The notes beneath the pieces are model-generated. The model saw only the letters and a list, made by a program, of their open reading frames with translations, was not told the DNA's origin and did no database searches. The translations under genes were made by a program, and so were the position numbers. DNA of 64,000 nt from Raja brachyura (lineage: Eukaryota): contig OY740787.1 of the NCBI GenBank assembly GCA_963514005.1, positions 65,410,001 to 65,474,000 on the forward strand, read 5' to 3'. Below, piece after piece: positions 1-53,300 of the stretch. Every line of letters begins with the position of its first letter. The stretch's first letter is position 1.

Positions 1-190
1 AACATCAAACAGGCCTCGGGTTCAACGCAATAGGACAACTAGAACCAACCCTCGGGTCGTGCCCTATCAACAAAAGCCTTTTTTAGGACTTTTTTAGCCC
101 ACAGCGACCAGCCTGGAAGATGCGCCAACCCCACATCCCAGCAACACAACGAACCAAGAAAGGCCAGAACATCAAGCCCCGCTGGTAACC

Positions 191-2120
191 ATGGAGGTAA
201 GGGGGTCTGGTTCTCTTGGGAGTGCTGCATGTATAACCTCACAAGTAGGAGGGAGATTGCGTACATTTTGGGATGCATGGGGTTCTATAACTTCTGACAC
301 TTTTATATTACAAAGTATTCAGGGTTATGAAATTAAATTCATAAATGGACACCTTCCCCCAGCTCAGCATGTATCTAACCAGAAATTTGCACTTTCTCAC
401 AAAGAAAAAGTGGAAGGATATGCGGAACTATTAAGGTTATACACCAAGGGGGTTATAGAAAAAACGTCACATGAACCTCGTGAGTTTGTATCTAACATCT
501 TTACTAAACCAAAAAAGATGGTGGATGTCGTATCATAATTGATTTAACCCACTTGAATACCTTTGTACAATATACCCAGTACAAGATGGAAACATTTGAA
601 ACGGCTAAGCAACTGATTTCCAGAGGGTGCTTCATGGCCTGCATCTTCATGGCCTAAAAGATGCATACTATTCAGTACCTATATGGGAACATCACCGAAA
701 ATACTTAAAATATGTCTGGATGGGGCAACTAAGGCAATACAGAGCCCTACCTAATGGGCTTACAACAGCCCCTAGGTTATTTACCAAAATACTAAAACCA
801 GTATTGGCGTCTCTACGAAGACAAAACCACATAGTCATGGCATATCTAGATGACATTTTAATTGTGGGAAAAACTTTGGAATTAGCTAAATTAGCAGTAA
901 CAGCTACCAAATCATTATTTGAGAAACTAGGGTTTGTCACCCATCCAGACAAATCTAAGTTCAACCCCTCTGTGATTATGGACTATCTGGGATTCACAAT
1001 TAACACCAGTCATATGATTGTCACTATCCCAGGGAACAAAGCAACAGACATAATAGAGGCATGTAACAGCCTTGCTTGCGCCAGGAAACCGACTATTGGA
1101 CATGCTGCTAAGGAGACTGGGAAACTTGTAGCTACATTTCCAGCTGCACAATTTGGCCCGTTACACTATCAAAACTTGCAAAGAGCAAAAATCTCAGCAT
1201 TAAAAGCAAATGCTGGACATTTTGACAGACCTATGCAGCTGCCAAACAAGGCAAAAATTGAGCTACAATGGTGGATTAGCAATGTTCGTGATTGTTTTAA
1301 TCCCATCATTATATCAAATCAATCAGTCGTGTTACAAACCGATGCAAGCGCCTAGGGCTGGGCAGCTACCGACACCACTTCCAGTTGTGGCGGCAGAGGG
1401 GATTTACACGAGTCTACTCTTCTTCAATCACAAGGTATAAACTATTTGGAAATGCTGGGAGCATTTCACGGGCTGCGGGCTTACTGCACTAATCTGCATC
1501 ATACGCATGTCCGTCTTCAAATAGATAATACCACAGTGATGGCGTATTTAAACCATATGGATGGTATCAAGTCAATATATTGTGATGAATTGGCAAATTT
1601 AATATGGCTCTGGTGTATTGAAAGAAATATTTGGATATCAGCTATGTACCTTCCGGGTAAGCTCAATACAGTGGCAGACACCAGGTCACGAGTATTTATT
1701 GACAACATCGAGTGGATGTTGAACCCCCAAATATTTGCTAAAATTACAGCCAAATATGGAACACCAGCTATCAACCTCTTTCCGTCCAGGTTGAACCATC
1801 AGATACCAACATATGTCTCTTGGGAACCAGTTCCTGGGGCAGTGGCGATGGACGCGTTCTTGCTACATTGGGGGAAATGGTTTTTCTATGCATTTCCCCC
1901 ATTCTGCCTCATCAGTCGGGCATTGCAGAAAATTCAACTAGATTCTGCATCAGGTATACTGATAATACCCGACTGGCCCACACAACCATGGTAACCGGTG
2001 GTCCTCAACATGATGAAAGAACCATGGGTACAGGTTACCAAATGCCCGAATTTGGTGACCAATCCCATAACAGGGGAAAATCAGCCATGCCATGGTCATC
2101 TGTTGGCTTGCAGGTTCTGA
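191..2120 (+). pseudogene. DIRS pol (RT/RNase H/MT-like), disrupted
   Basis: ORF pieces 191-538, 627-1355 and 1446-1994 are collinear with the intact pol at 35602-37461; separated by frameshifts and stops. Confidence 0.9.
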
Positions 2121-3078
2121 AGAGGCCTTTACTGGAATTCGGGCTGTCAACAAGAACCATGGACATCATTACAGCATCGTGCAGAGAGTCCACAAGAAAG
2201 CAGTACCTCACCCACATAAGGAAATGGGAGGCCTTCTGTAGTCGGACCAAGACCACCTACAACTCTGCTACGATCACCAATGTGCTGGAATTCCTCGCAG
2301 GCCTTCATTATGATGAGGCCCTCAGTTACAGTGCCATAAACAGTGCCAGGAGTGCACTGTCATCCTATCTCAACATTGGAGTGGGATCTCACCAGCTGGT
2401 ATCCAAACTCATGAGGGGTATATTCAATTCCAACCCTCCCCGACCACGATATAATATTACCTGGGATATTGGGGTTGTGTTGTCCCTACTCAGGAGCTGG
2501 TCGCCTATGACGGATTTACCACTGGACAAACTCACCTTCAAAGTGGTGATGTTAATGGCACTGACCACAGCACAACGGGTCCAGACACAACCGAAACTAA
2601 AACTGGATAGAATGGTCTCGACCCCCAATAAAGTGACTTTCTTTTTATAAATGAGTTACTTAAACAACACAGGCCTGGATCTACATGTCTGAAATTGGAA
2701 TTCCTAGCATACCCCGCTGATGTATGACTCTGTATAGCCACCTATCTCCGACATTATATCAATGTCACACAGACCATCAGGAAAATGGAGATGGGTCTAT
2801 TTATCAGCCATAAAAACCCACATCACAGGGTGACGGTGCAGACTATCTCCAGGTGGCTCAGGGTGGTATTGGGTGCAGCAGGTATAGACACTAACATTTT
2901 TTAATCTCATTCTACCAGGGCTGCATCCACATCAGCGGCGAGGACCATGGAGGTACCCATGGATCATGTCCTCGCAACAGCGGGCTGGGCCAGTGAACCT
3001 ACATTTCAGCGTTTTTATAACAAACCTGTGGCCGCTCCCGCAACGTTTGCGGAGTCAGTTTTAAGTGCTGTTCCCTAA
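2114..3078 (+). pseudogene. DIRS tyrosine recombinase, disrupted
   Basis: STRKQYLTHIRKW...SAINSARSALS...AQRVQ, later SHSTRAASTS, AGW, FQRFYNKPV; frameshifted after ~2645. Confidence 0.9.
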
Positions 3079-4189
3079 ACGTTTTTCCCCGAATTCAGGG
3101 GTTTTTGTTTTGTATTAATAAATACGTTATTATTTTTCAGCTTGTTCAAGTCTGAAATACGTTAACATACTTCCTCCATCAGTAATTACAGCAGTGTGTG
3201 AGCATGGACGTGGTCCAGGGCATGGAATCACAGAGCTTTGAAATCTTCACGAAGTCACTCGGGTGACTCCGAAGTAAAATAGTAAGATTAAACAAGAACT
3301 TACCAGTTTGAAGTCTGATCCTTATTTTATGAGGAGTTACGATGAGGGATTTCATGCCCTCCGCTCCCAACCCTCTATCATAAGGTCAACTGGTATATTA
3401 GTGGACTCTAAATCTTACTATCTTCAGTCATTGTTGTTATCTGTGATTCCACAGCGCTGCTTTGAAGAATGTCGCGCATGCGTGCTGGCGGGGTCTTCAC
3501 GAAATCCCTCATCGTAACTCCTCATAAAATAAGGATCAAACTTCAAACTGGTAAGTTCTCATTTAATCTTACTATTTTAGGTCACACAAAAATAAGAAAG
3601 CGATAAAAGCACTCAGTAGGTCAAAGAACAGCTATGTATAATATTTTCTTTGACTGGATAGCACACCACAAAAAGCTTTTCATTGTACCTCGGTACATGG
3701 GACAATAATAAACTGAACTAATAAAAAGAGAATAATGTTTCAGGTCAAGGAGCTTCATCAGACCTGGAAAAGAGAGACCTGGAAAGAGACCTGGAACAAA
3801 CAATGAAAATGATGGAGAGAACAAAGGAAATGATAAGCACATAAAGTTGGAGTAACTCAGTGGGACAGTCAGCATCTCTAGAGAGAAGGAATGGGTGATG
3901 ATTTGGGTCGAGACCCTTCTTCAGAGGTGCAGACCAAAGCTACTCCAGTTAGGAACAACACATCTGTGATGAAAAATAAGAAATGGTTACCTGAAATTAT
4001 TAAATTTAATATGAAGTTTAGTTTAGCTTATTGTCACGTGCACCGAGGTACAGTGAAAAGCTTTTGTTGCGTGCTTACAAGTCAGAGGAAAGACAATGCA
4101 TGATTACCATTGAGCCATCCACAGTGTCAATACATGATAATGGGAATAACATTTAGTATAAAGGGAATAACATTTTAAAGGGAATAACA

Positions 4190-5192: not shown

Positions 5193-7100
5193 GGTTGAAC
5201 ATAGACACTGGTGGGCGTGAAAAATGAGGACTATGAAAACCCTAGCTGTGTTTTAGCTGGGAGGAGAGTTGTTAGGAATAGAACTGCAGGAAACAGAGAT
5301 GCCATTGAGAACTCTATAACAACGGTAGAGAGGAAGCTATGATTAAGGAAAAAGACATCTTAAAAATATTGAATCAGCCTGTTCCATGTATCCAAAAAGT
5401 ATGCGTTGTTTAAAGAGTAAGGACTCAGTAGAATTCTTCTGCCATTTGAGTTGTGCCATAGAATATTTAATGCCCAAAGAGGTCCAATGGTGCAACACTT
5501 AATAGCTATGTCTGAAAGGTGGCATGTCACATTATACCAATCTCTTAACACCAAGACTGGAAGCCTAGACTATGTTGTGAAATGTAGAGTGCAAATTGAA
5601 CCTACAAACCTCTGCCTCAGAAGAATAATCACTACCATTGAACTTAGACCAATACAGTACACAATAGCTAATTTGCCTTCCCTTTGTAACAGTAAAACAA
5701 CTTGAAACTCCAGGAACTCCATCTTCAAGTTGAATTCCTTATAAATTGAGAATCACAACACTTAATATGCCAGATGAAGTGCAAGTTACTTGGACAAGTA
5801 GCAGAAATATAAACTGGAACAATAATTTGCATTGATACCTTCTTAAAGCCAAGCAGGCCTGACTTGAAAATATTAAGAACAAAAGTTTGTGAGATGATGG
5901 CATGTAGACTGAGGTTAGCTGAGAAGACACAGCAGGGCATGATCTTGGATTTGCATAGATACCATGGATAAGGAAGTATTAGTGACTGTCTGTAAACAAA
6001 ATGCCCATGTGAAACCTCAGTACTGTCAATTTACATTATTAGTATCAGCAAACCTGAACCAGTTTGAAATATCTTGAAGATTTGGGATACAGGCACTATA
6101 AGCTGAGCAGTATTAGTTATTTATTATTTGTTCGGGGAAAAGCCACATCTAGCCAACTTTACTTCCTCCCTTCATGGGCTGGTTCCATTCTCAGATGTGC
6201 CCTAATGATCTTGGTAAAAAAACAGATAGAAATTAAGCAAATCACAAGCCACAGCTGGACCACGAGAAAGCAAATCTGATCACAATGGAAAATCACCACT
6301 AATGCCTGCACAACATCTAAAACTAAAAGCTACCTCTTCACTAGCCCAAAATCACCAGACCTGCTAGGCCTGGTCACCAATAATATAGTCCCAAATTTGC
6401 ATGAACTGAATATTTCATAGTGGACCCTAAAGACAGCTAAAGAAATGGGATGAACCAAGGTTTAGACACAGAAATAACAAGGAAAACAAAAAGACTGGAT
6501 TATAGGACACCTGGGGGGAAAAAAGATTACCATAAAATATTTTAACACTCAAGAAACCTGTAGAAATAATGTGCACAAAAGGACATAAAGCATCTCGGGA
6601 GAACATGGATAGGTGACGTTCTTGTGAGGACCCTTCTTTAGGCACAATGTACAACATACAACTTGGAGGAAGAAATGGCAGCATTTTCTTCCATACATCT
6701 CTGTCTCAGTGCGGTTCGCAAAATTTACAGAATTCTTATGGCAATGAATACCAATTTTAAATTGATGCAAGAGTTTAACTTGTACTATGTGCAAACGCAA
6801 CTTGCAGTCTGAAGAAGGGTCTTGACCCAAAATGTCACCTACCCATGTTCTCCAGAGATGCTGCTTGACCTGCAGTTACTCCAGCATTTTGTGAAATTTT
6901 GCTAATACTAACATCATTCATCTCTTTCAATTATTACCTCCCACGGGCAGATGATTAGGCACCGCACATCTCCAGCATTTACTGCTTTCATCTCTCGCAC
7001 ATTGATACCCAGATGCTCCCATAGAACAAAACAACACAGCTGAGGAAACACAGGCCTTTCAGCCCACAATATCCTTGTCAAACATGATGCCAGGTTAATC

Positions 7101-8492
7101 AGTCACATTGACGACTGCTTTGGTGTCACCTCCTGCACCCACGCAGAACTGACTGACTTCATCCATTTCACCACCAACTTCCATCCGGCACTCAAATATA
7201 CTTGGACCATCTCCGACATTTCCCTACCATTCCTTGACCTCACCATCTCTATTGCAGGTGATACACTCCTGACTGACATCCACTACAAACCAACTGACTC
7301 CCACAGCTACCTGGACTACTCTTCCTCCCACCCTGCTTCCTGTAAGGACTCCATCCCCTATTCCCAATTCCTCCGTCTACGCCGCATCTGCTCCCAGGAT
7401 GACGTGTTCCACACCAGGTCATCGCAAATGTCCTCGTTCTTCAGAGAACGGGGTATCCCCTCCCCCACTATAGATGAGGCTCGCACCAGGGTCTCCTCCA
7501 TACCCCGCAACACTGCCCTCTCTCCCCATTCCCCCACTCACAACAAGGGCCGAGTCCCCCTGGTCCTCACCTTTCACCCCACCAGCCAGCGCATACAACA
7601 GATAGTCCTCCGCCAGTTTCGTCACCTCCAACGTGACCCCTCCACTCGCCACATCTTCCCATCTCCCCCCGTCTGCCTTCCGCAAAGACCGCTCCCTCCG
7701 CAACTCCCTCGTCAATTCTTCCCTTCCCTCCCGCTCCACTCCTTCCCCGGGCACTTTCCCTTGCAACCGCAAGAGATGCTACACTTGTCCCTTCACCTCC
7801 CCCATCCACTCCTTTCAGGGACCCAAGCAGTCATTCCAAGTCCGACAGAGGTTCACCTGCACCTCCTCCAACCTCATCTACTGCATCCGTTGCTCCAGAT
7901 GCCAGCTGATCTACATCGGTGAGACCAAGCGGAGGCTGGGCGATCATTTAGCCGAACACCTCCGCTCGGTCTGCAATAACCAACCTGACCTCCCGGTGGC
8001 TCAGCACTTCAACTCCCCCTCCCACTCCGTATCCGACCTCTCGGTCCTGGGCCTCCTCCACGGCCAGAGTGATCAACACTGCAAGTTGGAGGAACACCAC
8101 CTCATATTCCGCTTGGGGAGTCTGCATCCTCTGGGCTTAAACATTGAATTTTCTCAATTCTGTTAACCCAGACTGCCTCCCCCCCACCTCTCCCTCAGCC
8201 TTCTGGCCCTGACATTCCTTCTCCATCTCCCCCCCCCCCCCCCCCCCAGTCGCACTAGCTTCTCATTTTCACACCACAAACAGCTTACAATGGCCTGCTT
8301 CCTTTATCACCAATACTTTTTTGCATATCTTTCACTCATTGTTCCTTATCTCTCCACATCACTGTTTATATCTCTCGTTTCCCTGATCCCTGACCAGTCT
8401 GAAGAAGGGTCTCGACCCGAAACGTCGCCTATCTCCTTCGCTCCTTAGATGCTGCTGCACCCGCTGAGTTTCTACAGCTTTTTGTGTAACCC
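7101..8492 (+). mobile_element. Penelope-like element (Neptune type), 5'-truncated, RT C-terminal half + GIY-YIG + pLTR
   Basis: Starts at the IDDCFG catalytic motif, then LPFLDL, YKPTDSHSYLDY, Cys linker PCNRKRCYTC and GIY-YIG (LIYCIRC...YIGET); one frameshift ~7665. 12-bp TSD gccaggttaatc at 7089-7100 and 8493-8504, inside a CR1-like tail. Confidence 0.93.
8399..8426 (+). ncRNA. Minimal type I hammerhead ribozyme core in Penelope pLTR
   Basis: CTGAAGA-A-GGGTC-TC-GACCC-GAAACGTC: CUGANGA box, 5-bp stem II, GAAA, palindromic ACGU in place of stem III, UC cleavage motif. Confidence 0.7.
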
Positions 8493-16832: not shown

Positions 16833-17865
16833 GGGTACACAAAAGGCTGGAGAAACTCAGCGGGTGCAGCAGCATCTAAGGAGCGAAGGAGATAGGCGAC
16901 GTTTTGTGTCGAGACCCTTCTTCAGACTGGTTAGGGATCAGGGAAACGAGAGATATAGACGGTGATGTGGAGAGATAAAGAACAATGAATGAAAGATGTG
17001 CAAAAAAGTATCGATGATAAAGGAAACAGGCCATTGTAAGCTGTTTGTAGTGTGAAAATGAGAAGCTAGTGCGACTTGGGTGGGGGAGAGATAGAGAGAG
17101 AGAGGGAATGCCAGGGCCCGAGGGTTGAGGGAGAGGTGGGAAGGGGAGGAGACAGCAAGGGTTAACAGAATTGAGAAAATTCAATGTTCAAGCCCAGAGG
17201 ATGCAGACTCCCCAAGCGGAATATGAGGTGCTGTTCCTCCAACTTGCGGTGTTGCTCACTCTGGCCATGGAGGAGGCCCAGGACCGAGAGGTCGGATACG
17301 GAATGGGAGGGGGAGTTGAAGTGCTGAGCCACCGGGAGGTCGGGTTGGTTATTGCGGACCAAGCGGAGGTGTTCGGCGAAACGATCGCCCAGCCTCCGCT
17401 TGGTCTCACCGATATAGATCAGCTGGCATCTGGAGCAGCGGATGCAGTAGATGAGGTTAGAGGAGGTGCAGGTGAACCTCTGTCGGACCTGGAAAGACTG
17501 CTTGGGTCCCTGAAAGCAGTGGAGGGGAGAGGTGAAGGCACAAGTGTAGCATCTCTTGCGGTTGCAAGGGAAAGTGCCCGGGGAAGGGGTGGAGCGGGAG
17601 GGAAGGGAAGAATTGACAAGGGACAATGGCCTGTTTCCTTTATCATCGATACTGTTTTGCATATCTTTCATTCATTGTTCTTTATCTTTCCACATCACCG
17701 TCTATATCTCTCGTTTCCCTGATCCCTAACCAGTCTGAAGAAGGGTCTTGACCCGAAACGTCGCCTATCTCCTTCGCTCCTTAGATGCTGCTGCACCCGC
17801 TGAGTTTCTCTAGCCTTTTGTGTACCCTCGATTCTCCAGCATCTGCAGTTCCTTCTTTAACTCTT
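16833..17865 (-). mobile_element. Penelope-like element (Neptune), truncated, with inverted pLTR copy
   Basis: GIY-YIG ORF 17162-17620 (-) nearly identical to 7633-8166; pLTR in minus (16833-17160) and plus (17620-17860); TSD tacaattcttaaggg at 16821-16835 and 17866-17880. Confidence 0.93.
17735..17762 (+). ncRNA. Minimal hammerhead ribozyme core in Penelope pLTR
   Basis: CTGAAGA-A-GGGTC-TT-GACCC-GAAACGTC. Confidence 0.65.
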
Positions 17866-30944: not shown

Positions 30945-32139
30945 TCCTTTAAATACTCAGCTAATCAGACATCGGAGAATGGAACTGTTTGGTTCTAATG
31001 AACATTGTTAAATATTTACTAACATGAGATGTTGTGAGATGTCTAACATCTCATATGGGTCTCATGACCAAATTAAAATTCTCCCACATAGTTTTATGTG
31101 GGAACCCACATAGTTCCCACATTAGTTTCCCACATTGTTTTAATTATTGTTATTATCATTCTGCTGGTGTTAAGGGGTTTGATACCTTGGGAAATGTCAC
31201 ACTTTTTTTTAACTCACTGCAACCAAATGGCCACTGTCTTGTTTTTAATTTATTTGCCCCCTGAGACTTTGAGCTGTCCTAAAATTATGGAATTCCACTG
31301 TGAATGAGAGACCACTTTGCAACTCTCTTTCATAATGTCAGTAATATCTGGTTTTAAAGAGTACCTCACAGTTTAATTGTCAGGGACACCTCTCTTAACA
31401 ATTCTCCATTCACAATTCTGTGATCAAACAAAACACTGAAGAACAATCTGCAAGTTATGCCGTAATCAATTCTCTTCACATTCAGAGAAAACTTCACAGG
31501 CCATTAACTATGCTTGTGTGTGGCCTGTTCAAATTGAAAACACTGTCCAGTGTTCTGATCTGGAATTATTATTTTTAACCCCATTCTCTTCTTGTGATAA
31601 TCGGTTGCTCATGTAAAGTTGTCTTTTTCTATTGTGCTTCAGAGGTTTGGCTGCACGCCATCAGCGACAAGAAATAATGGAAACATGGTTATCGAAAGAA
31701 CAGGATTGGTGACTAACTGTGCAATTTGTCACATCATGGGATAGCATATAAAAGGAATACGGTGAGTGATTGGAGCTAATGGTAGTTCCGTGTTTTTACT
31801 TCGGAGTCACATGAAGAAGAAGGCCGTCCCCACGCATGCGCGTCATGACGTCTGACGGGTTGCGCACGGACTGACTGGTGGCCGCGCGGCTCCTGCCAGC
31901 GGTAAGTTTTTGACCTTAGAAGGTAAGTTTTTAACTTATTTCTAGGGGTGTTTTATGCATTGCAGGATTGCCTGCTGAATTTGGGGCGAAGTTGGACGGG
32001 CCACGGGAAACCGGTTATGGACCGTGGGGAAAACCCGGTCCGGACCGTGGAAACGCGAGTAGCCGGCGGCAGTCCCTGGCCGCTGACAAGGATGTCAGTG
32101 ACACCCAGGAGGGTAATGCGAGTGGGGGTTCTCCCAGTA

Positions 32140-32727
32140 TGGGCTCCCAGACCGCTATGGTCCCCCAGAGAACGGCTTAGACTGGCAGTCTAAGTCACTG
32201 TTAACCCAGTCACTTTTAATGGGGTTAGCAGCTCCCACATCGCATGGTTCCCCCAGAGTATGGGAGAGTATGGGTTAGACTGGCAGTCAGCCGGTCTTGC
32301 AACCCCAGCCATTCACTATGGGGTCTACAGTTCCTACACCGTTATGGTCCTCCAGGAAAAGGGGTTAGACTGGCAGCAAGCAGGTCTTGCAACCCCAGCC
32401 ATTCACTATGGGGTCTGTAGCTCCCACACCATTATGGTTGTCAGAAATAGGGGTTAGACTGGCAGCAAGCCGGTCTAGCTACCCCAGTCTCGGACAATGG
32501 GGTCAGCAACCCCCAGACCGCTTAGGTCTTCCTAGAGAAAGCGGTCAGACTGGCAGTAAGCTGGTCACGCTAATGCAGTCGCTCACAATGGGGTCAGCAG
32601 CTCCCAGACCGCTTAGGTCTTCCTAAACAAGGGGAAAACTGGGAGTAAGCTGGTCTCGAGACCCAGTCACTAACTATGGGGTCAGCAACTCACAGACCGC
32701 TATCGTTCCCCAGGAAAGGGGTTAAAC
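32140..32727 (+). repeat. Tandem array of ~6.5 units of ~90 bp inside DIRS copy B
   Basis: Anchor ttagactggcag and variants recur at 32177, 32275, 32365, 32454, 32545, ~32635 and ~32721. Confidence 0.85.
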
Positions 32728-34337
32728 CACGAGGAAGCCGGTCAGGCCTTAGGACTCGGTCGAGCCGGGCCAGGAGGTTTCCTCCTCCTTCTATGGTTAG
32801 CGTCCGTGAACGCCTAAAACCTACCTGGAGCACCTGATGAAGGTTGCTCCAGAGAGATATGCTCCAGAAGAGAGCTATCTGAGCCCGGGTATTATGAAAA
32901 ACCCGCTGGCAGCCGACCTGTTAGGGCTGCACAATGTCTCCCTCTCTGAGGAGGGGAGCATCCGGGGTCAGTTTCGCTCTGGCCCAGAGTCATATTCTGA
33001 TATGGGTCCGAGGGGCAATGTCAGCGCAGGTATCTTCAGGGGCCTGCGGCAGCATCTGTCTCGGGCTATCTACGAGTCTCCCTCTCGGTGGAGGGGAGTG
33101 CGCGGACATACTCGCAAGGGAAGAGGCAAAAAACCCGGCAGGGGCCAGATTCCCTCACGCTGCAAGTGCCGGCAGTGCACAGAGCTATCAAATGAAACCA
33201 TCGTATCGGCGATGACACCCCCATGTCTCAACAGCAGTAAGCAGTTCACTGAAGTTGATGGGCGCTTGAAAGCTGGGCCAAGCTGGTCTCAGGAAGGAAA
33301 TCAAGGATGGGGATGGAACCCACGTCAGGGGCCTTTGGGCTTACCATAAGACCACCGGTAACCATGGAGGTAGGTAGCTCCAGTTCGTTCGAAACGTGGG
33401 GTAAGTGGACCATTTACAAGTTGGTAATATTTACATTTGTTTTGTACAAATGAAAATGATAACATGTGATGGGTAATTATTAGAGTTGTCTTTCGAGGCA
33501 GACTCAGTATTACAGCCAGAGCAGTTTTAAGGCAGGCCAGTAGTAAGGCCAGAGCTGCATTCAAGGCAGGCACGGAACGATGGCAGGCGTGGCTCGTTCC
33601 TTGTGAAAGATGGAGAGATGTCGGTTCATATTTCATTTACTCCCATGTGCAACATAGCTTTTCAGTATATGGAATTTCTCTACTGTTTAATTACTTATTT
33701 CCTTAGGATCATTATGGCATGCATCAAGATCATAGATGCATACTGTTTAGGACCCATTCACTGGAGATCACCAGAGACATTTCAAATTGATCTGGAGGAT
33801 ATTTCTTACACTGTGTTTTTGCTTAAATTAACCGTTTCAGCCATCCAATCAAATTTAAGTTGATACCAACTGGAAGTTGTTGTTTATCGGCTTTACCCTT
33901 AACTATTAATTACCTGTGATTCCGCCCTGGGGCAACAAATTGGAATCAATTGAAGCCTGTAACAACCTTGTTATCAAGCAGTCTTCTATTTATCAAAAGT
34001 AATTGGCTATAGCAACTGTGTTTCAGCTGTGCAATTGGGTCTTGCATTATTAGAACTTTCGACGTGCAAGTATTAACCTCTCAAGTGCCATATAGGTCAT
34101 TGTTAACAGACCTATGCTATTTTACTTCGGAGTCACGTGAGTGACTACGTGAAGAAGCCCCGCCTGGCGCTGGATCGGCATTATGTCGACGCTATCGGCA
34201 GAGAAAGAGCTGCAGAGCGCAGCTCCACACAGCGGTAAGGAACCGGCCCGCAGGTAAGAGAGTTTTCGAAATTTAGGGCGAGGTTCCAGAACTCTGTAGC
34301 CTGGTGGGTAAACCAGGAGGAGTTAGCAAAAAACAAA

Positions 34338-35543
34338 ATGGAGAAGGCCAAAAAACAGCGGGTAAAACGTGCATCCCGGGGTGATGAGTCGGGACAAGAG
34401 TTTATTGCGGAGCCGGTTCCGATACCGGTCGCCGTTGAAATACCCGTTAGTGAGGCTTTGATTGCTCCACAAACAGAAACTTTGGAGGAAAACCCAGTGC
34501 CTAAAAAATGTAAAAGAAAATCTGAAAGGCCAGTGGGTTCTGATGAATCTGATTCAGAAGGTCCAGAAAGAAAAGCCTTATGGCTCAGAATGGACCAAAT
34601 GGAGAAAATGCTCCAAACTATTATCAACCAAGGGTCTAAGAACCCAGAATATTCCCAGGCAGCCCCTGAGGGGGTTCCATATCAAGAATATGGTGCCAGT
34701 TTGAATTGGGAATTTGAAACTCCAGTGCCTGGGATTGGACTGGAGGAAGTCTCCTTTGAACAAGTTTCAGGAGTACCAGGGCTGTATGAGACAGACCCTG
34801 AAAGTGGTGATTGCGGTCCGGAGTACACACCACAATACAATTATATGGATCCAGGTGTGCCTGATGTGGCACAAAGTTTTGCTGGAGGAGGCGGTGAGGC
34901 CATGGAAGATAACCTGGTGGCCAATATTAATTATATGGTCTCTCACCCGCTTCAAGAAGCTGTTATGGTTGAGACAGCAGAAATGTATAAAACACCTATC
35001 AATTGTGCCTCATTGAAGGTACCTACGGTGAATCAGGCTGTTTGGGCGCCAATGTCATCGATAATGCGGGCGCAGGAGATTCGATTTCAAAGAGTCCTCA
35101 AGCTGATTTCAGCTGGCATTACTGCATTTGGTAGACAAGTGGAAGGTTGTGGAATGACCAAAGTGCAGAAACATATGTTGGCCTTATTTTGCAACTCATT
35201 TTTTGAGATAAATTGCATGAGGAAGATTGCCATTCGGCCTCTGTTACATCCAAGATTTGCAGGGTTGTGTAAACCAAGCAATGTTCAAACTCCTGGTTAT
35301 TTTTTCGGAGAGGATTTGTCTAAGCAAATTAAAGAAATGGATGAAGAGGCAAAGACTTTTGGTCGTATGAAACTCTTCAGCTTTGGCCAGAGATGGACTG
35401 GCTATATGAAAAAGGGATTTGATTTTGGAGCTGGTACAAGCCGAGGCAGGAGTATGATAAGGAAAAATTTCCAGCCAACAGCCGAATGTACGCCCATTCA
35501 TTGGGAAAAGGAGATCATTTCGTCCAGTTGGAGAGGTACATAA
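34338..35543 (+). CDS. DIRS ORF1 (gag-like)
   Basis: 401-aa ORF in gag position; PINCASLKVPTVNQAVW and FFGEDL resemble DIRS ORF1 motifs; the tail may be frameshifted. Confidence 0.8.
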   Translation: MEKAKKQRVKRASRGDESGQEFIAEPVPIPVAVEIPVSEALIAPQTETLEENPVPKKCKRKSERPVGSDESDSEGPERKALWLRMDQMEKMLQTIINQGSKNPEYSQAAPEGVPYQEYGASLNWEFETPVPGIGLEEVSFEQVSGVPGLYETDPESGDCGPEYTPQYNYMDPGVPDVAQSFAGGGGEAMEDNLVANINYMVSHPLQEAVMVETAEMYKTPINCASLKVPTVNQAVWAPMSSIMRAQEIRFQRVLKLISAGITAFGRQVEGCGMTKVQKHMLALFCNSFFEINCMRKIAIRPLLHPRFAGLCKPSNVQTPGYFFGEDLSKQIKEMDEEAKTFGRMKLFSFGQRWTGYMKKGFDFGAGTSRGRSMIRKNFQPTAECTPIHWEKEIISSSWRGT

Positions 35544-35601
35544 ACATTATCCTATTAAAGAGGAATGTTGGGATGAGCCACAGATTGGTGGTAGACTCCA
35601 A

Positions 35602-37461
35602 ATGTTTTATAAGGAATGGGACAATATAACAGTTGATCGTGTGGTATTAGACACTGTGCTAGGATCTACCATTGATTTTGTGGAAGGTATGGTTCCATTG
35701 GGACAGAATGAGCCTAGTCATTCTTTGATGTTCTCAGAGCTTGAGAAAATTCAAATTGACAAAGAGATTAAGAATTTGAGTAAAAAAGGAGTTATTGAGA
35801 AAACAGGAGAGGATCCACAACAATTTGTATCAAACATTTTCCCCAGACCAAAGAAAGATGGGGGTTGTAGGATCATTTTAGATCTCACACTTTTGAATAC
35901 ATTTGTCCAGTATAAACATTTTAAAATGGACACATTCTACACTGCAATGCAGTTGGTATCAACAGGCTGTTATATGGCTACAATAGATTTGAAGGATGCA
36001 TATTATTCGGTCCCAATTCATCATAGTTTTCGCAGGTATTTAAAGTTTAAATGGATGGGACAGCTGTGGCAATACAAAGCTTTGCCTAATGGATTAAGTT
36101 CAGCACCTAGATTGTTCACTAAATTGTTAAAGCCAGCACTTGCACTGCTAAGGGCACAAAAACACATCGTTATGGCTTACCTTGATGACATTTTAAATGT
36201 CAATGCTAATCAGGAATCAGCTGAAAATTCAGTTTCAGCAACTATTAGCTTGTTTGAGAAGTTGGGTTTCCTGATCCATCCAACAAAATCTAAGTTACAG
36301 CCATCCCAAACCATTGAATATCTGGGGTTTGTGATTAACTCAGTTACCATGTTGATAACTTTACCAATGGATAAGGTGTTAGATTTGACAAATGTGTGTC
36401 AAAACCTGATTAACAAACCTTATCCCTCCATCCGAGAGGTTGCCAAGGGTATTGGTAAATTGGTAGCAGCATTTCCAGCAGTAGAGTTCGGTCGTCTACA
36501 TTACCAAAATCTTCAAAGGGCAAAAACTAAAGCACTAATTCAGCGAGCAGGCCATTTTGATAGGCCAATGCAATTGCCTAAGGAAGCTTTATCAGAATTA
36601 CATTGGTGGATTGAGAATGTTCCACAAGCTGCTAAGAACATTTTAGTTCATCAGCCAGTCGTGTTTTTACAAACCGACGCAAGTTCTCTCGGATGGGGGG
36701 CTACGGACAATGAGACCAGCTGTGGAGGCAGATGGGCTGTCCAAGAGGATTTGTTGCTCCAAACATATGGTATTAATTATTTGGAGCTACTGGGAGCATT
36801 TTATGGATTAAAAGCTTATTGCTCTTCATTAAAGGATTTGCATGTCCAAGTACAAATAGATAATACCACAGCTGTGGCATATATCAATCACATGGGTGGT
36901 GTCATATCAATATCATGTGATCATCTGGTAAACCAGATATGGCAATGGTGTATGGCAAAAAATATTTGGCTTTCAGCTATTTATCTCCCGGGGAGAGACA
37001 ATGTTGTGGCAGACAAAAGATCACGAAGATTTAAAGACAATACAGAATGGATGTTAAATCCACAAATTTTCAAAAATATTGTCAGTCGTTATGGAGTACC
37101 GGACATTGATCTGTTTGCATCTAGATTGAATCACCAATTGCCGAAATACGTGTCTTGGGAACACGATCCAGGGGCAGTAGCGGTGGATGCTTTCTCGCTA
37201 CACTGGGGGAATACGTTCTTTTATGCTTTTCCCCCATTCTGTCTCATTGGGCAATGTCTCAAGAAAATAGCGCAAGACGCTGCCAAAGGCATTTTGGTGG
37301 TGCCAAATTGGCCCACGCAGTCATGGTTCCCATTGATGCTAAAAATAATTATTGAACCATGTATGACAATTCCCAGTTGCGACAATCTGTTGACACAACC
37401 AGTAACAAAAGAAATTCATCCATTGCATGATCATATGAATTTGTTAATCTGCAGGTTCTGA
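35602..37461 (+). CDS. DIRS ORF2: reverse transcriptase + RNase H + methyltransferase-like domain
   Basis: IDLKDAYY, YKALPNGLSSAP, YLDD, YLGF, LQTDAS, LELLG, IDNTTA, DLFAS, YAFPPF; frame open from 35461. Confidence 0.95.
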   Translation: MFYKEWDNITVDRVVLDTVLGSTIDFVEGMVPLGQNEPSHSLMFSELEKIQIDKEIKNLSKKGVIEKTGEDPQQFVSNIFPRPKKDGGCRIILDLTLLNTFVQYKHFKMDTFYTAMQLVSTGCYMATIDLKDAYYSVPIHHSFRRYLKFKWMGQLWQYKALPNGLSSAPRLFTKLLKPALALLRAQKHIVMAYLDDILNVNANQESAENSVSATISLFEKLGFLIHPTKSKLQPSQTIEYLGFVINSVTMLITLPMDKVLDLTNVCQNLINKPYPSIREVAKGIGKLVAAFPAVEFGRLHYQNLQRAKTKALIQRAGHFDRPMQLPKEALSELHWWIENVPQAAKNILVHQPVVFLQTDASSLGWGATDNETSCGGRWAVQEDLLLQTYGINYLELLGAFYGLKAYCSSLKDLHVQVQIDNTTAVAYINHMGGVISISCDHLVNQIWQWCMAKNIWLSAIYLPGRDNVVADKRSRRFKDNTEWMLNPQIFKNIVSRYGVPDIDLFASRLNHQLPKYVSWEHDPGAVAVDAFSLHWGNTFFYAFPPFCLIGQCLKKIAQDAAKGILVVPNWPTQSWFPLMLKIIIEPCMTIPSCDNLLTQPVTKEIHPLHDHMNLLICRF

Positions 37462-38429
37462 CCAGACCATTGCAAGAGTTTGAACTGTTGGACAGGACCA
37501 TGGATGTTATAGATGCAGCTTGGAGGACTAGCACTAAAAAACAATATATGTCGCATATAAGGAAATGGGAAGCTTTTTGTACACAGTCAAAGATATCTTA
37601 TCATACTGCAAACATTTCAAATGTATTGGAGTTCCTTGCTGGGTTACACTTTGATGAGCATTTGAGTTATAGTGCCATTAATTGTGCTCGGAGTGCATTG
37701 TCATCCTATTTAGGACAAAATTCGGATCGGGATTCAGTTGGGTCTCACCCATTAGTATCCCGATTCATGAAAGGTAATTTTAATAAAAATCCTCCCAAGC
37801 CCAGATATACAGAAATTTGGGATGTTAGCATTGTTCTCACTTTGCTTAAACAATGGACTCCAATTAATTCAATGTCTTTGCAGAAATTAACATTCAAGGT
37901 GGTTATGTTAATGGCATTGGTATCAGCTCAAAGAGTACAAACTTTGCAATTGTTAAGGTTGGATTGCATGCATGTGAATACAGATAACGTTGTGTTTTAT
38001 GTTTATGACTTGATCAAACAAAGCAGACCAGGAAGAACTGGAATGAAGGTAATGTTTAAAGCATATCCTGTTGATGAAACATTGTGTGTAGTTAAGCATT
38101 TAACTCAATACATTGAGGTAACCAAAAATCTCAGAGGTTCTGAGAAAGCGTTATTGATAACACACAAAAAACCACATACAAAAGTTTGAGTTCAAACCAT
38201 TTCTAGATGGTTAAAACAGGTTTTGGGTCTAGCAGGAATAGACACTGATTTGTTTAAATCTCACTCCACTAGGGCGGCAGCTACGTCCGCGGCGAAGGTA
38301 CAGGACGTACCACTCGATCAAATTTTAGAGGCCGCAGGGTGGTCTAGAGAAGAAACTTTTTCAAAGTTCTACAATAAACCTGTTGTCACGGTGCCAGGAT
38401 TTGGACACGCAGTACTGGGTTCTCTTTAA
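37455..38429 (+). pseudogene. DIRS ORF3 tyrosine recombinase with one in-frame stop (TGA 38187-38189)
   Basis: ORFs 37470-38189 and 38223-38429 share a frame; catalytic R (AQRVQ), HSTR, AGW and FYNKP are present. Confidence 0.92.
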
Positions 38430-41306
38430 ATGCTTGCTTTGTTTATATTATAGATTTATGTTACCATTGACATAATTTATCAATTATTTTGTAATTTTCC
38501 CCTGCGATAGAGGGGTTATTATTAAAAAAGTTGTTCTTTTTATAATTACTTATTACATAAATTGTAACAATGTGTTAAAATACTTTTTACTCACTACTGT
38601 TTTGACTAAACAGAGAGTCGTATGAAATGAATTTACGACATAAAAAACACAGAGCTTTAAAATCTTCACGTAGTCACTCACGTGACTCCGAAGTAAAATA
38701 GTGAGATTAAACGAGAACTTACCTGTTCGAAGTTTGATCTTTATTTTATGAGGAGGTCCGATGAGGGATTACGTGCCCTCCACTCCCAACCCTCATAATG
38801 TAAATGATCATCTGGTAGTTCTAGTCTATTTTGAGCCTTACTATTTTACTCCGGCTATTGGTTCTGTGTTTTTCATGCCGCTGCTTTGAAGTATGCCGAT
38901 CCAGCGCCAGGCGGGGCTTCTTCACGTAATCTCTCATCATAACTCCTCATAAAATAAAGATCAAACTTCGAACAGGTAAGTTTTCGTTTAATCTCACTAT
39001 TATCAGCTGAAGCTACCAAAGTCACAATGGTGGTCGAACTACATTCAGCATTGCTCCAGTAGTTTTGGTCATATTATCTTCAGTTATATTACTTACACGT
39101 GCTAAAACTAAGATGGAAAATCACGAATACAATCTCTAGTAACGAAGGCGGATGGAATTTGCTTGAATCGCCAATTCTTCAGTTATTGGTATTAACTACC
39201 TATAGACATTAGGTGTATACTATGGGTTAAAGGGTTATTGTGCGAATATGCAAAACCTGCATGCTTAGTTCCAAGTTGATACACTGTGGTGGTGGCATAT
39301 GTTAATCACATGAATGCAATAAAACCAAAGTATCCTGTCATAATTTATCCAACCCTTTTTGGCACTGGTGTATCATCCTGCAAAGTCAATGACAACACAG
39401 TATGGATGTTGGATCACAAAGCATTTTACGATATAAGGCTCGAAGGCACCCAATATCGATATGTTTGCATGCAGGCTCATTCTTGCTACGTAACATTACA
39501 TAAATTGCGAATGGACAGGATCATTACACCTGCAATATCATAATTCATGTTTACATACCCCATGCACCTTCGGTTACATGTGGTCACACATTTACATCAT
39601 TACAGGTGAGGAATGTTCTTTTATGGGTTTCTCCATTTTGCCTCGTCAGTCGGGGCTTGCAATATTCAGCAAGATCCCGCATTCAGGTTTCTCGTACTAT
39701 CTGACTAGCTTATGCAGCCATGGTTTCCCGCAAATGTTGGGAATACTACAGAACCTTATATGGGGTTCTAAACATAAAACTTTGCTGGTTCAGCCTGGGA
39801 TTCGGGGAACCAGCCTCTACATGACTAACCAATTCATTGCTTTACAGAATCTGAGAAGACCGCTCCTGCAGCTCGGGGTGTCAGACTCATCCATGTATGT
39901 CTCACTGCAGAATGCAGGGATAGGAACAAAAAAGCAGTACTTTGCCTCTTCACGAGATGTGAAGAGTTTTTCTGTTAAATGTTATGTTACACATAATACG
40001 GCACGGATACTGACGTCATTTCTATGCGTCTTTGACAATAACTTAAGTTATAGTCCCATTAACTGTACCCAACGTGCTTCTCCTCATAGTTGCTGCAGCA
40101 AGTGGGACCCGCTCTCTCGGGTTTCACCCTCCGGTGTCCAGTATTTAGGATATCATTAACACAAGTTCTTCCAGACCCAAGTACACGGAAGTATGGGATA
40201 TTGATATTGTGTTAACATTTATTCACCATGGGGCTCCAGCTATATCACTATCTTTGGTTCGGCTCTCATAGGTAGGTTATTCCCAGGCGCTGCCCTCAGT
40301 GCACGGGTCCAGTCATTACATAAATTGCGAATGGACAGGATCATTACACCTGCAATGTCATAATTCATGTTTACATACCCCATGCACCTTCGGTTACATG
40401 TGGTCACACGTTTACATCATTACGTCAAGATCATCTTGAGCCTTAGAGGCTCTGATACTAGTTCAGACCATCTCCAGGTGATTATGCATGGTTTGGCTTA
40501 TACAGGAGTAGATACTGATTCCTAATCTCACTCCACCAGGGCTGCTACAACACCAGCAGCAAGGGTTACGTGCCGTCCTCTGGACCACATCCTGTCAACT
40601 GCAGGATGGTCTAACAAACGAGGTATCCAACATTTATTTTAACCCATTGCCAGACCAGGGGTATTTGCCAACTCTATTTAGGTTCAATTTATAGTTCCCC
40701 TCGGTTGAGAAGGGTTACTGGTATTATTGTTTGTTCTTTTATTAGCATCAGCATGGTTTTAAATCTATGTCATGTATGTATGCATTATGATGTTTCCCTC
40801 ATCTATGGTCAGCTGATGCAGTCGTGCTTGTGTGGACTCGTTTTTCCACGGCATAAAATTACAGACTTTCAAAGTCTTCACGTAGTCACTCCCGTGACTC
40901 CGAAGCAAAATAGTAAGATTAAACGAGAACTTACCAGATTGAAGTTTGATCGTTATTTTATGAGGAGTTACGATGAGGGATTATGTCCGCTCCCTACCCT
41001 CGTAACTTAATGATCATCTGGTAGTTCTAGTCATCTATAATCTTACTATGTTAGTTCAACAACTGTTATCTGTGATTTCACACCGCTGCTTTGAAGATTG
41101 ACGCGCATGCGTGGGGACGGCCTTCTTCGTCACGTAATCCCTCATCAGCGACTGGGCCTGGGCTGGAGCAGAGCCTGGAGCTGGAATGAGGGTCGAACCC
41201 TCTGCCCTCTCTCTCTCTCTCTCTGCCCTCTCTCCCTGCCTCTGCCCTCTCTCACTGCCTCTGCCCTCTCTCTGCCCTTCTCTCTCTCTGCCCACTCTCT
41301 TTCCCG

Positions 41307-47642: not shown

Positions 47643-48480
47643 TATGATGCAAAAAAAATCTCAGGTAATTTACTTTGGTGAACAAGAAAATAGAGTATCT
47701 GCTGAATGTGAGAGTGAGAAATGTTGATGGTCAGAGGGGCATGGGTGTGCTAGTGTGTGTAATTGAAGGCCAGCATATCGATGCATGGAGAATGCAAGAC
47801 TGTTCCGTTTCTTTTTAACACATATTTTTGAAACATTTCAGCTACTACCTTAAATGGATTCCCATGTTCTAATCTTTATGTTTGAGTTTTTAATCGTCAA
47901 AAATGTGCATTTTCGCTTTCCTTTCCCAGTTTATAGTCTATGAAAATTCTTTAGTGCTCCATTTTGGAAGCAAAGTATCTTATTAAATTGACACCTGACA
48001 AGAACAGCCAACAGAAATGGGAAAACTCTCAAAACAGAACAATAGATCTTAGACACACGATGCTGGAGGAACTCAGTGGGACAGGCAGCATCTCTGGAGA
48101 GAAGGAATGAGTGATGTTTCAGGTCGAGACCCTTCTTCAGACCCAATATCTTTTTGGGGAGCTTTCATCAAGGTATGTGAATCAGTTCCACTGTTTGTAA
48201 AATCTGGGGCAATAAGTTGTGGTTGTTGAAACTCTTACCAAAATCATTCTGGCAATGTTTTGCTAAGTTGTTGTTTTATTGTTATTTTGTTAAAAAATGT
48301 CTACATCAGCACCAATTGAGTCAAAAATGTTTTAATCATTGTATGAACCTGGACCAGAACAATGGAATTCTTTCTTGCTGCAGCTTTATCGGCACGTAGC
48401 CTCAACATCACAACAAATAAACATACAATTAATTATCAATTATCCTAGGTAAAACAGACCATAACAGTGTACGCCAAAGT

Positions 48481-49845
48481 ATGGGCGAATTAATGGAAAG
48501 GATACTTAGAGATAATATATATAAGCATCTGGATAAACAGGGTCTGATCAAGAACAGTCAACATGGATTTGTGCATGGAAGGTCATGTTTGACAAACCTC
48601 CTTGAATTTTTTGAAGAGGTTACTAGGGAAATTGATGAGGGTAAAGCAGTGGATGTTGTCTATATGGATTTCAGTAAGGCCTTTGACAAGGTTCCCCATG
48701 GAAGGTTGGTTAAGAAGGTTCAATCTTTGGGTGTTAATGGCAGAGTAGCAAGATGGATTCAACAGTGGCTGAATGGGAGATGCCAGAGAGTAATGGTGGA
48801 TGGCTGTTTGTCAGGGTGGAAGCCGGTGACTAGTGGGGTGCCTCAGGGATCTGTGTTGGGTCCACTGTTGTTTGTCATGTACATCAATGATCTAGATGAT
48901 GGGGTGGAACATTGGATAAGTAAGTATGCAGATGATACTAAGATAGGTGGTGCTGTGGATAATGAAGTAGATTTTCAAAGTCCACAGAGAGATTTGGGAC
49001 ATTTGGAAGAGTGGGCTAAAAGATGGCAGATGGAGTTTAATGCTGATAAGTGTGAGGTGCTACATCTTGGCAGGACAAATCAAAATAGGACGTACATGGT
49101 AAATGGTAGGGAATTGAGGAATGCTGTGGAACAGAGGGATCTAGGAATAACTGTGCATAGTTCCCTGAAGGTGGAATTGCATGTAGATAGGGTGGTAAAG
49201 AAAGCTTTTGGTGTGCTGGCCTTTATAAATCAGAGCATTGAATATAGGAGTAGGGAAGTAATGTTAAAATTGTACAAGGCATTGGTGAGACCCATTCTGG
49301 AGTATGGTGTACAATTTTGGTCACCTAATTATAGGAAGGATGTCAACAAAATAGAGAGAGTACAGAGGAGATTTACTAGAATGTTGCCTGGGTTCCAGCA
49401 ACTAAGTTACAGAGAAAGGTTGAACAAGTTAGGTCTTTATTCTTTGGAGCGCAGAAGGTTAAGGGGGGACTTGATTGAGGTCTTTAAAATGATGAAAGGG
49501 ACAGACAGAGTTGACGTGGATAAGCTTTTCCCATTGAGGGTAGGGAAGATTCAAACAAGAGGGCATGACATGAGAATTAAGGGACAGAAGTTTAGGGGTA
49601 ACATGAGGGGGAACTTCTTTACTCAGAGAGTGATGGCTGTGTGGAATGATCTTCCAGCAGAAGTGGTGTAGGCAGGATCGATTTTAACATTTAAAAGTAA
49701 AGTGGATAGGTATATGGACGGGAAGGGAATGGAGAGGTATGGTCTGAGTGCAGGTAGATGGGACTAGGGGAAAATAAATGGTCGGCACGGACCGGAAGGG
49801 CTGAGAAAGCCTGTTTCCGTGCTGTAATTGTTATATGGTTATATG
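48481..49845 (+). mobile_element. CR1-clade LINE, 5'-truncated, with open RT ORF 48481-49671
   Basis: QHGF..GRSCLTNL, YMDFSKAFDKVPH, VTSGVPQGSVLGP, YADD, LERRRLRGDLI; short-repeat tail ttatatgg. Confidence 0.95.
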
Positions 49846-50334: not shown

Positions 50335-53300
50335 GTAGTGTTCACAAGCCTGAATATTGTTCGGAAGAAGCTATTCTTGAACCTGGATGTCCCGGTTTTC
50401 ACACTCCCAGACCTTCTTCCCGATGGTAAGAATGAAATGAGAGCACGGCCAGGGTAACATGGTCTTTGATGATACTGGCTGCCTGTTTGAGGCAACACCT
50501 CCTATGTTTCCCTTCGATGGTGGGGAGGTCAGTGCACACAATGGACTTCTAGTAATCTCCTTTGTTAGTAGTTTGGTGCTGAGGTATCATTGTGCTGTGC
50601 GGTTCAAAAGATAGTTGATGTGAAGAAGCTCTTCTTGAACCCGGAGATAATGGTTCTCAGGCTCCGGTGCCACCGATGCTGGCAGTGAGGTGAGAACGTG
50701 ACCATAGTGATGTGGTTCTTTGTTGATATTAGTGGACTCAGTAAGCTAGCACTTCTTGTAGATCCCTTCAATGGAGGGAAGGCTAAGTGATGACTGGATA
50801 ATGTCCATCACCTTATGCAGCCTCCATTGTTCTTGAGCATTTGATTTAGTTACAATGCAACCAGTCAGGATGTTCTCCGTCATACACATATAAAGGTTTG
50901 ATAAGAGTATTCTGCGACATTCCAAGTATCTTTAAAGTTTTGAGAAAGTAGAGGCGTTGGTGAACTTTCTTTGTAGTTGCATCACTGCTGGGCCCTGGAC
51001 ATGTGCATGCACAGAAACTTGAACCCTTTGAATCTCCAGAGCAGAAAGGGATGACGGTGTTGAACGTCAAGCTGAAGTCGATGAACAATTGTATGAAGTC
51101 GGTGCTCCTGTTGTTCAAGTGATCAAGCACAAAACGGAAAGAAAGCGAGTTCACATTCACTGTTGATCTACTGTAGTGGCGAAGTGAAGTCGGTCCAGAC
51201 CCTTACTAAGGCAGGAGTTAATTTCTCCCAATCTCTCAAAGCCCTTCAATGCAATGGATGAATGTGCAAGTATTCCGTAGTCATTGAACAATGGCACCTT
51301 GCTCTTCTTGGGCACCAGTAATGTGGATATTTATTTAAAGCAAATTAAGTCCTAAGTCTGTAGTAGTGAAAGGTTGAAGATATCCATGAAAATTCCAGCC
51401 AGTTGGTTCACGCAGATGTTTGACAACATGGCCACATACACCATCGGGGCCAGATCCTTCCCGAAGGTTCACCATCAAGGAATCTGCTGATTCCAGCCTC
51501 AGAGACTGAGATCAGAGTCGTCAGGGGATGTGGGGGGGCTCATGAAGCACATTATTGTTCTTTTCATAGAAAGTGTTGAGCTTGTTGGGACTGATGAATC
51601 AATGTCACTTCAGCTCCCTGGCTTCATCTTGTCAGTGGTGGAGAAGTGCAAGCCCCGTCACAGTTTACAAGTATCCAACTGAACCTCCAGTTTAAATTGA
51701 ATGCTCTTTGTGTTCTTGGTCTTCTGGAGATCATTACCTGGAGTACTTGTATGTCTGAATCGCTTGACTTGAAGGCCACAGAAATGTTCTGCAGTAGATT
51801 ACGAATCTCCAAGTTTATCCAAGGCTTCTGTTCAGAGAACATGTGGATGGCCTTTACAGGATCACATTACTCTACACATTTCCTTATGAAATCAGTAACT
51901 GTACAAATACACAAAAAAATGGAGTAACTCAGCAGGACAGGCAGCATCTCTGGAGAGAAGGAATGGGTAATGTTTCGGGCCAAGGCACTTCTTCAGACTG
52001 ACAGTCATTGGAATGGGAAAGGAGAGATATAGACGATGATGGAGAGAGATAAAGAACAATGAATGAAAGATATGCAAAAAAGTAAAGATGATAAAGGAAA
52101 CAGGCCGTTGTTAGCCGTTTGTTGGGTGAAAACGAGAAGCAGGTGCAATTTGGGTGGGGTAGGGATGGAGAGGGAATGCCGGGGTTACTTGAAAGGAGAG
52201 AAATACATATTCATATCACAGGGCTGTAAGTTGCTCAAGCAAAATATGAAATGGTGTTCTTCCAATTTGTGGTTAGCCTCACTGACAATGGAAGACCTAG
52301 GACAGAAAAGTCAGTATGCGAATGGGAAGGAGAATTGAAGTATTTAGCAACCGGGAGATCAGGTAGGTTCAGGCGGACTGAGCAAAGGTGTTCAGCGAAA
52401 TGATCGCCCAGTCTACGTTTCGTCTCGCCGATGTACAAGAGCCCACATCTTCAACAACAGATACAGTAGATAAGGTTGGAGGAGGTTCATGTGAACCTCT
52501 GTCTAACCTGAAAGGACTGTCGGGGTCCCTGGTCAGAGTCGAAGGAGGCAGTATAGGGACAGGCTTTGCATCTTCAGCGATTGCAGGGGAAGGTACCTGG
52601 GGAGGGGGTGGTTTGGGATGAGTTAACCAGGGAGTTGCGGAGGGAACAGTCTCAGCGGAAGGTGGAAAGGGGTGGAGATGGGAAGATGCGACTAGTGTTG
52701 GGATCCCGTTGGAGGTGACGAACATTTTGGAGAATTATGTATTGTGTGCAACGGCTGATGGGGTGAAAGGTAAGGACTAGGGAGACTCTGTCTCTGTTGG
52801 AACTGGAGGGAGGGGAAGCAAGGGCGGAGCTGCAGGGTACTGAGGAGACACGTGTGAGGGCCTCATCTATGATGGGAGAGGGTTACTCCCATTCCCTAAA
52901 GAATGAGAACATCTCGGATATCCTGGTATGGAACACCTCATCTGGGACACAAATTTGGTAGTTGGGTATAGAATATTTGCAGGAAGCAGGGTGGGAAGAA
53001 GTGTAGTCGAGATAGTTGTGGGAGTCAGTGGGTTTATATTGGACGTCAGTTGATAATCTATTTCCTGTGATGGAGACTGAGATCAAGAAAGGGGAAGGAG
53101 TTGTCGGAGATGGTCCAAGTAAATTTGAGTGCAGTATGGAAATTGGTGGCGATGTTGATGCACTTCCTTCATACACAACAACTGCACAATACAGCTTCTC
53201 TGCCTCCATTGACCAGCTCTGCAACACTCACAGCTGGGTATATGCACCCTTCAGTCACTGCCATTACACAGGAACACAGCCAGGTGTCCGATTTTCCAAA

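Follow-up and report, generated by a model that had tools for sequence, protein, structure and literature searches.

Sequence evidence for a probable pol-skipping splice and a predicted Gag-YR fusion in DIRS1-like elements of Raja brachyura

The third ORF of DIRS elements, which encodes the recombinase (YR), often has no start codon of its own; how, then, is the recombinase made? The question is raised by a 64,000-nucleotide stretch of Raja brachyura DNA (contig OY740787.1, positions 65,410,001 to 65,474,000; hereafter the window) from a 2.7-Gb genome. The window contains three DIRS copies, namely A (its 3′ part), B, and C, the last nested within B (Table 1). A first-pass annotation of these letters had proposed that YR is read from a spliced, env-like mRNA. 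Because the three window copies are homologous and not independent, the window alone cannot beat chance, and wider samples were needed. We fetched 20 close relatives for each of A, B, and C, took 40 further stretches of the same genome from the first 100 terminal-motif matches listed, and scanned metagenomes, where 73 of 79 loci were usable and gave 41 families at 80% identity (the six left out of the count were L267, L273, and L278, at a contig edge, and L259, L266, and L279, with a frame break in the anchor). Unlike the window alone, these samples (families, donors, and codon bias) do beat chance. Judged from sequence, YR in these elements is probably made from an alternatively spliced RNA that skips pol, with a Gag-YR fusion as the predicted product. 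The pol-skipping splice taken by itself appears highly likely and, if the splice occurs, fusion to Gag is about equally likely.

DIRS1-like elements in the window

The elements are DIRS1-like by their RT, YR, inverted terminal repeats, and internal complementary region (ICR). The pol ORF contains an RT domain (RVT_1, E = 3.8e-20 for the pol of copy C), and the YR ORF, which overlaps the end of pol, matches Phage_integrase (E = 1.2e-9 for the YR of the fetched stretch L035). By self-BLAST, the termini of C are inverted (34118-34181 inverse to 38956-38893), as are its repeats and ICR (34117-34155 inverse to 38701-38663; 38697-38775 inverse to 39001-38923). No Pfam match to RNase H or methyltransferase (MT) follows the RT domain; the motifs TDAS, DLFA, and FPPF are present and may belong to these two domains. 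The first ORF (400 aa) is conserved across families and in sea urchins and has no Pfam match; the label Gag is given to it by position, as in passages of PMC4495291. Parts of PMC3266345, PMC9210276, and PMC7192593 describe a similar layout for DIRS1-like elements, with a gag-like ORF, a pol encoding RT, RNase H, and MT, an overlapping YR ORF, inverted terminal repeats, and an ICR. Split direct repeats of the Ngaro type were not found; the termini of the present elements are inverted repeats.

The copies differ in condition. Copy A begins before the window (its 5′ half is in L031, from about 8358), its leader donor is deleted, and both of its TTTTTTA runs are out of gag phase in what is a decayed copy. 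Family B is decayed, with a stop within YR codons 1-15 in 18 of 20 copies and no ORF of 200 codons at 17 of 20 loci. Family C is young (copies 98-100% identical), and its gag and pol form one ORF of >1,040 codons in five of 20 copies; a gag/pol frameshift in C was considered and rejected, as the frame break near 35477 belongs to the window copy. The 5′ region of B also contains tandem internal repeats of about 90 nt (32143-32747). Elsewhere in the window, further fragments of retroelements (with ORFs that by eye look RT-like and endonuclease-like; 7044-8491, 16833-17828, 48433-49671, and 51908-53160) lie in regions that also hold many short interspersed repeats. At G000:C1:720740-763023, terminal-motif matches are spaced about 10.6 kb apart, marking a tandem array with DIRS copies in it.

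Table 1. Features of the three DIRS copies in the window (positions count from the first letter of the window)
Feature	Position	Strand	Remarks
Copy A frameshift site	79..96	+	two TTTTTTA runs; predicted -1 site of the family
Copy A upstream exon end (predicted)	186..196	+	gag stop TAA 186-188, then ATG GAG in -1 (pol) frame
Copy A predicted pol intron	197..2113	+	GTAAGG...TTGCAG, 1,917 nt; RT and putative RNase H/MT coding region
Copy A YR exon	2114..3078	+	VLKRPLL..., frame breaks; pol stop 2118-2120; +45 ATG 2159
Copy A 3′ region	3214..3579	+	internal complementary region and inverted repeats (self-BLAST)
Copy B left part, decayed family	31794..34116	+	leader donors 31902/31923; gag-end donor 33370
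Copy C, nested in B	34117..39001	+	leader donors 34235/34254; gag-pol 34338-37461
Copy C signals	35536; 37454; 37455-38429	+	weak phase-0 donor; acceptor; YR
Copy B right part	39002..41146	+	acceptor 39847, decayed YR, 3′ repeats

Candidate splice signals and reading frames at the ends of pol

The CAG acceptors of A, B, and C are where the first-pass annotation placed them, and the YAG is kept in 19/20 relatives of A, 20/20 of C, and 20/20 of B. Pyrimidine tracts are modest (47-76% pyrimidine at -20 to -4), and an AG-free zone of 18-108 nt precedes the acceptor in 23/23 representatives. The GACTAAC upstream of the acceptor in B, read earlier as branch-point-like, does occur in the window copy, but CTAAC is found within 35 nt in 0/20 family-B copies; we regard it as a private mutation and rejected it as a conserved signal.

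The AG lies in an Arg codon near the end of pol, and the annotation had allowed that protein constraint might explain it, proposing to follow that codon across families. The outcome was split: AG at this position is kept in 7/7 short-overlap families (YR frame closed within 15 codons upstream) and in 1/34 long-overlap families (long open frame) among the 41 metagenome families (Fisher P = 3.6e-7, which overstates independence since the families are related). In the long-overlap families the residue at that position varies freely (H, K, L, and CGN-Arg), and so the Arg is not required by the protein, which goes against the constraint explanation. There, in 30/32 cases (L239, L268, and L270 are without the FPPF anchor), the AG that comes first after the FPPF pyrimidine tract falls in YR phase 0; it lies about 210 nt upstream, and in several families the YR frame opens exactly there. 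Ser codons at this upstream AG are AGY in 23/26 cases vs. a background of 229/977 (23%). Distant families thus appear to share the donor and to use an acceptor about 210 nt further upstream.

Some loci have lost these sites. The acceptor AG is gone (GCTG) in a decayed family (L095, L104, L110, L112, and L115), consistent with relaxed constraint in non-coding lineages, and in a deletion family (L099, L101, L111, L116, and L126) a deletion has taken out the usual acceptor, with CAG/GTGCTGCAG as the join between the FPPF region and a point close to the ATG found 45 nt past the acceptor in other elements. In the metagenome DIRS L257, the open YR frame extends 1,042 codons upstream and so covers the whole of pol, as it does in DIRS-1, and AG is missing at both acceptor sites.

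The working donor is probably GAG/GTR at the gag/pol boundary (window 197 in A), joined in phase 0 to the CAG ending at 2113. The ATGGAG/GTARG donors of A and B were confirmed, and the site recurs 17-18 codons before GGRL with differing residues between. The GAG/GTACAT reported in C exists, but it is not at a pol start: it sits inside gag-pol, in phase 0. We scored donors by matches to the consensus MAG/GTRAGT, on our own scale of 7. In 35/39 elements (21/23 from metagenomes), the 120 nt before GGRL contain a phase-0 site with a score of at least 5/7, compared with 44/590 control pol windows; C scores 4/7, and L092 3/7. A phase-compatible donor and a YAG acceptor are both conserved beyond what the protein needs.

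Upstream of the donor by 108-123 nt, a T-TTT-TTA heptamer lies in gag phase with the pol frame open across it. It is present in 9/13 donor-bearing family-A copies (at -114 from the donor), in 11 other elements of the same genome, and in eight metagenome families, so that a heptamer of the form X XXY YYZ in the upstream frame is found together with an open -1 frame. Small hairpins follow it (in a pseudoknot-free model, z at or below -2 in 2/19 candidate sites), and no strong stimulator shared by the 19 sites was found 3′ of the heptamer.

At the other end of the predicted intron, the first codons of YR look like protein. Divergence by codon position is 0.33/0.22/0.61 in YR codons 4-15 and 0.34/0.25/0.57 in codons 17-45, and in most representatives the YR frame meets a stop 5-8 codons upstream. 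The ATG 45 nt past the acceptor is present in A, B, and C as had been described; as a conserved YR start it fails, being found in 9/16 representatives (A, C, J, and K included), and in five the first Met is YR codon 105-130, as likewise in L109, in which all three ORFs are open. Because codons 4-15 evolve like protein, the frame is closed upstream, and the start codon is unreliable, the YR N-terminus appears to be translated from elsewhere.

We propose that one promoter would give both an unspliced and a pol-spliced RNA. The unspliced RNA would serve as genome and yield Gag and, after a -1 ribosomal frameshift, Gag-Pol; the pol-spliced RNA would yield Gag and, after the same frameshift, Gag-YR. 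Gag would then carry either enzyme, RT or YR, into the particle. In family C, with gag and pol in one frame, the frameshift would be unneeded.

The same splice might instead be followed by reinitiation at the pol-start ATG after the gag stop, giving free Pol and the short M-E-YR protein that the annotation had envisaged. We consider this unlikely as the main route. In A, B, J, and the L097-L117 group, the order TAA-CC-ATG-GAG in an ACCATGG context would suit it, but the ATG is not conserved: its place is taken by TTG in L093, L118, L130, L131, L191, and L193, by ACG in K, and by AAG in L125, and C has no pol-start ATG. Upstream, moreover, the pol frame stays open through the heptamer for about 50 codons, and many J2 copies hard-wire gag to YR.

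Leaders and pol-less junction copies

Leader donors (AG/GTRAG) are strong, nearly universal in the families sampled, and often in hairpins; the paired GTAAG donors noted earlier in the leaders of B and C are indeed there. Several leaders have a pyrimidine tract and a YAG 19-60 nt past the donor, just before the gag ATG, and B has an acceptor-like CAG at about 31965. Such leader cassettes were seen at window 31902-31965 and 34235-34280 and in L055, L093, L097, L099, and L182; the family A leader is textbook (GTAAGT..TACTAAC..CAG). In no fetched copy was the leader intron precisely removed. A second leader-like donor/acceptor cassette lies about 850 nt inside J elements (L162, about 1020-1080), which have an unusually long 5′ region (about 3.5 kb) with internal repeats. 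We speculate that DIRS gag, with an acceptor in front of it, could be prone to exonization, as in the LAP2alpha/ZNF451 case of PMC4495291.

The env-like scheme of the first-pass annotation, in which splicing would run from a leader donor to the YR acceptor and translation of YR would begin at the +45 ATG, draws on these nearly ubiquitous donors, on that ATG where it is present, and on the weakness of the gag-end donor in C, where it could be an extra route. We think it improbable, somewhat more so than reinitiation. Codons 4-15 are constrained as protein and the first Met is far downstream in five representatives, several leaders have their own acceptor 37-60 nt downstream, and a genome-wide leader-to-YR probe returned five matches with no splice junction among them (two non-splice deletions and three leader look-alikes). 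At the DNA level, a join from leader donor to 3′ acceptor followed by its own conserved start was not found, and the scheme is unsupported as the main route.

The pol-skipping join, in contrast, is present in genomic DNA. A probe made of the donor exon end and the YR exon start found three copies at first, with gag directly before YR and pol missing, and in a search with one such copy 40/40 scored matches span the join. Genome-wide, the stretch homologous to the predicted pol intron of A is precisely absent from 88 copies of related families (84 AAG and 4 GAG at the junction), vs. 5,262 unjoined J/K acceptors. These 88 copies support the claim that a splice between the donor at the start of pol and the acceptor at its end would remove pol in frame. 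The J/K acceptors were 99 CAG and one TAG among the first 100 matches listed; GAG-type acceptors, absent from those 100, were set aside as a probe artefact. Pol-containing J/K parents have GAG/GTAAGG or GAG/GTGAGG at the exact junction point.

Gag lies upstream of YR in all 29 junction copies fetched and tested; three keep the heptamer, 26 are without it, and gag is in frame with YR in 14. L170 has a single 734-codon Gag-YR ORF with gag similarity and YR domains. Trees required three changes on the YR side and five on the gag side, of which the starred branches force at least two and at least three, respectively; read from these trees, the junction copies arose at least twice, K separately from J, and J1 and J2 may go back to a single event. 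The pol-containing J copy L184 groups with junction copies at its gag end and with pol-containing copies in YR, and may be a recombinant; as it groups differently on the two sides, we dropped the idea that the in-frame state arose first in the pol-containing J2 lineage.

The leader intron is kept in all junction copies with a readable 5′ end, so these are not fully processed mRNA copies. The pol-spliced RNA would retain both ends and the leader intron and could at times be copied in trans by a trans-acting RT, and we propose that the pol-less J and K copies exist because of such copying. This is consistent with the trans activity of the DIRS-1 RT described in part of PMC7192593. Genome probes found no junction copies of families A, B, and C, and none was evident among 76 metagenome loci. 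Aligned to C, contigs X1, X2, X4, and X6 (X1 guessed as RNA) gave no GT..AG joint among the best 15 of 169 rows, nor did they on the J copy L182 among the best 15 of 146, an outcome that counts neither for nor against the splice.

AGGT stands on both sides of the junction, and a DNA or template-switch deletion would give the same product. In the parents, the 4-nt match occurs at 12-19 sites upstream. Probes joining such alternative sites to the YR exon, which covered the DGAG (22 matches) and HAAG (seven matches) classes, revealed long-range joins nowhere but at the predicted donor; the rest were point mutants, small local indels, and chance matches. The same junction recurs in gene models of a sea urchin. 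Two Diadema antillarum proteins found with the L170 protein (XP_071502116.1 and XP_071483612.1, RefSeq predicted gene models) consist of gag, an AFFRP-containing tail, and E/VLKLP-YR, without RT; the best 150 profile matches, of which 10 were inspected, yielded no other clean Gag-YR protein.

It is about as improbable as the env-like scheme that there is no splicing at all, that YR arises by a pol-to-YR frameshift in the short overlap as for Ngaro, that the motifs reflect protein constraint, and that the junction copies are amplified microhomology deletions: YR is in the -1 frame of pol, frameshifting has been proposed for Ngaro YR (Poulter and Butler 2015, quoted in a passage of PMC13003380), the junction has its microhomology, and other non-splice deletions are common, but a canonical in-phase slippery heptamer is missing from the overlap in 20/23 representatives (2/23 have one at -21), L113 has a TAG directly before the YR exon, in long-frame families the residue varies and an AG turns up at another phase-0 site, at least two origins use one of the 12-19 equivalent sites, and the sea-urchin models share the junction. 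The splice model itself is weakened by the AGGT microhomology, by the weak donor of C, and by the want of a clear frameshift stimulator.

Known systems and implications

The HIV-1 gag-pol -1 frameshift uses U-UUU-UUA, and retroviral env is translated, from a start of its own, on an mRNA spliced from the leader, integrase being part of Gag-Pol. Retroviruses thus share with the present elements the type of heptamer and the division between an unspliced genome and a spliced mRNA, but here the donor follows gag. Alternative splicing of one transcript also apportions proteins in the Ty1/Copia element EVD of Arabidopsis (part of PMC5580714); there it yields a short Gag-only RNA, whereas here it would swap the enzyme fused to Gag. 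Ngaro elements, as quoted in PMC13003380, likewise have a YR that starts over the end of pol in the -1 frame; the proposal for them is the pol-to-YR frameshift, whereas in the present elements the heptamer sits at the end of gag and splicing is the predicted way to YR.

In the passages of the DIRS1-like texts available to us (PMC3266345, PMC9210276, and PMC7192593), these elements have three overlapping ORFs, whereas our evidence favors splicing that skips pol, fusion of Gag to YR, and junction subfamilies that lack pol. The string "splic" had no match in the accessible text of PMC3266345 and PMC9210276, and the mentions of splicing in PMC7192593 concern a reporter intron (12 of 22 places). 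We found no report of a pol-skipping splice in the DIRS literature searched, namely the accessible parts of PMC3266345, PMC9210276, PMC6681497, PMC5633606, PMC4157794, PMC4495291, PMC9341512, PMC7192593, and bioRxiv 10.64898/2026.05.21.726589, and an earlier mention in Repbase notes, supplements, or key reviews is possible. The sole proposal for YR expression that we found in these sources is the Ngaro frameshift just described. The elements are of a known type, with an expression strategy that is likely undescribed.

A broader reading, which we favor with less confidence than the Gag-YR splice itself, is that a large animal DIRS1-like clade, from this vertebrate to sea urchins and many metagenome hosts, shares one switch: a frameshift at the end of gag, after which the pol intron is either retained or spliced, to give Gag-RT or Gag-YR. 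As parts of that reading, two alternative acceptor positions would explain the short and long pol/YR overlaps, and Gag-YR subfamilies would have been founded by spliced RNAs, some with the frameshift hard-wired, and would be mobile by borrowing only RT.

For a third ORF so often without a start, the splice model gives exact junction coordinates. If true, it would account for the entry of a recombinase with its own ORF into the particle and for the existence of both short and long pol/YR overlaps, and it would change DIRS ORF annotation in a genome with 17,567 terminal-motif matches (one element can match twice).
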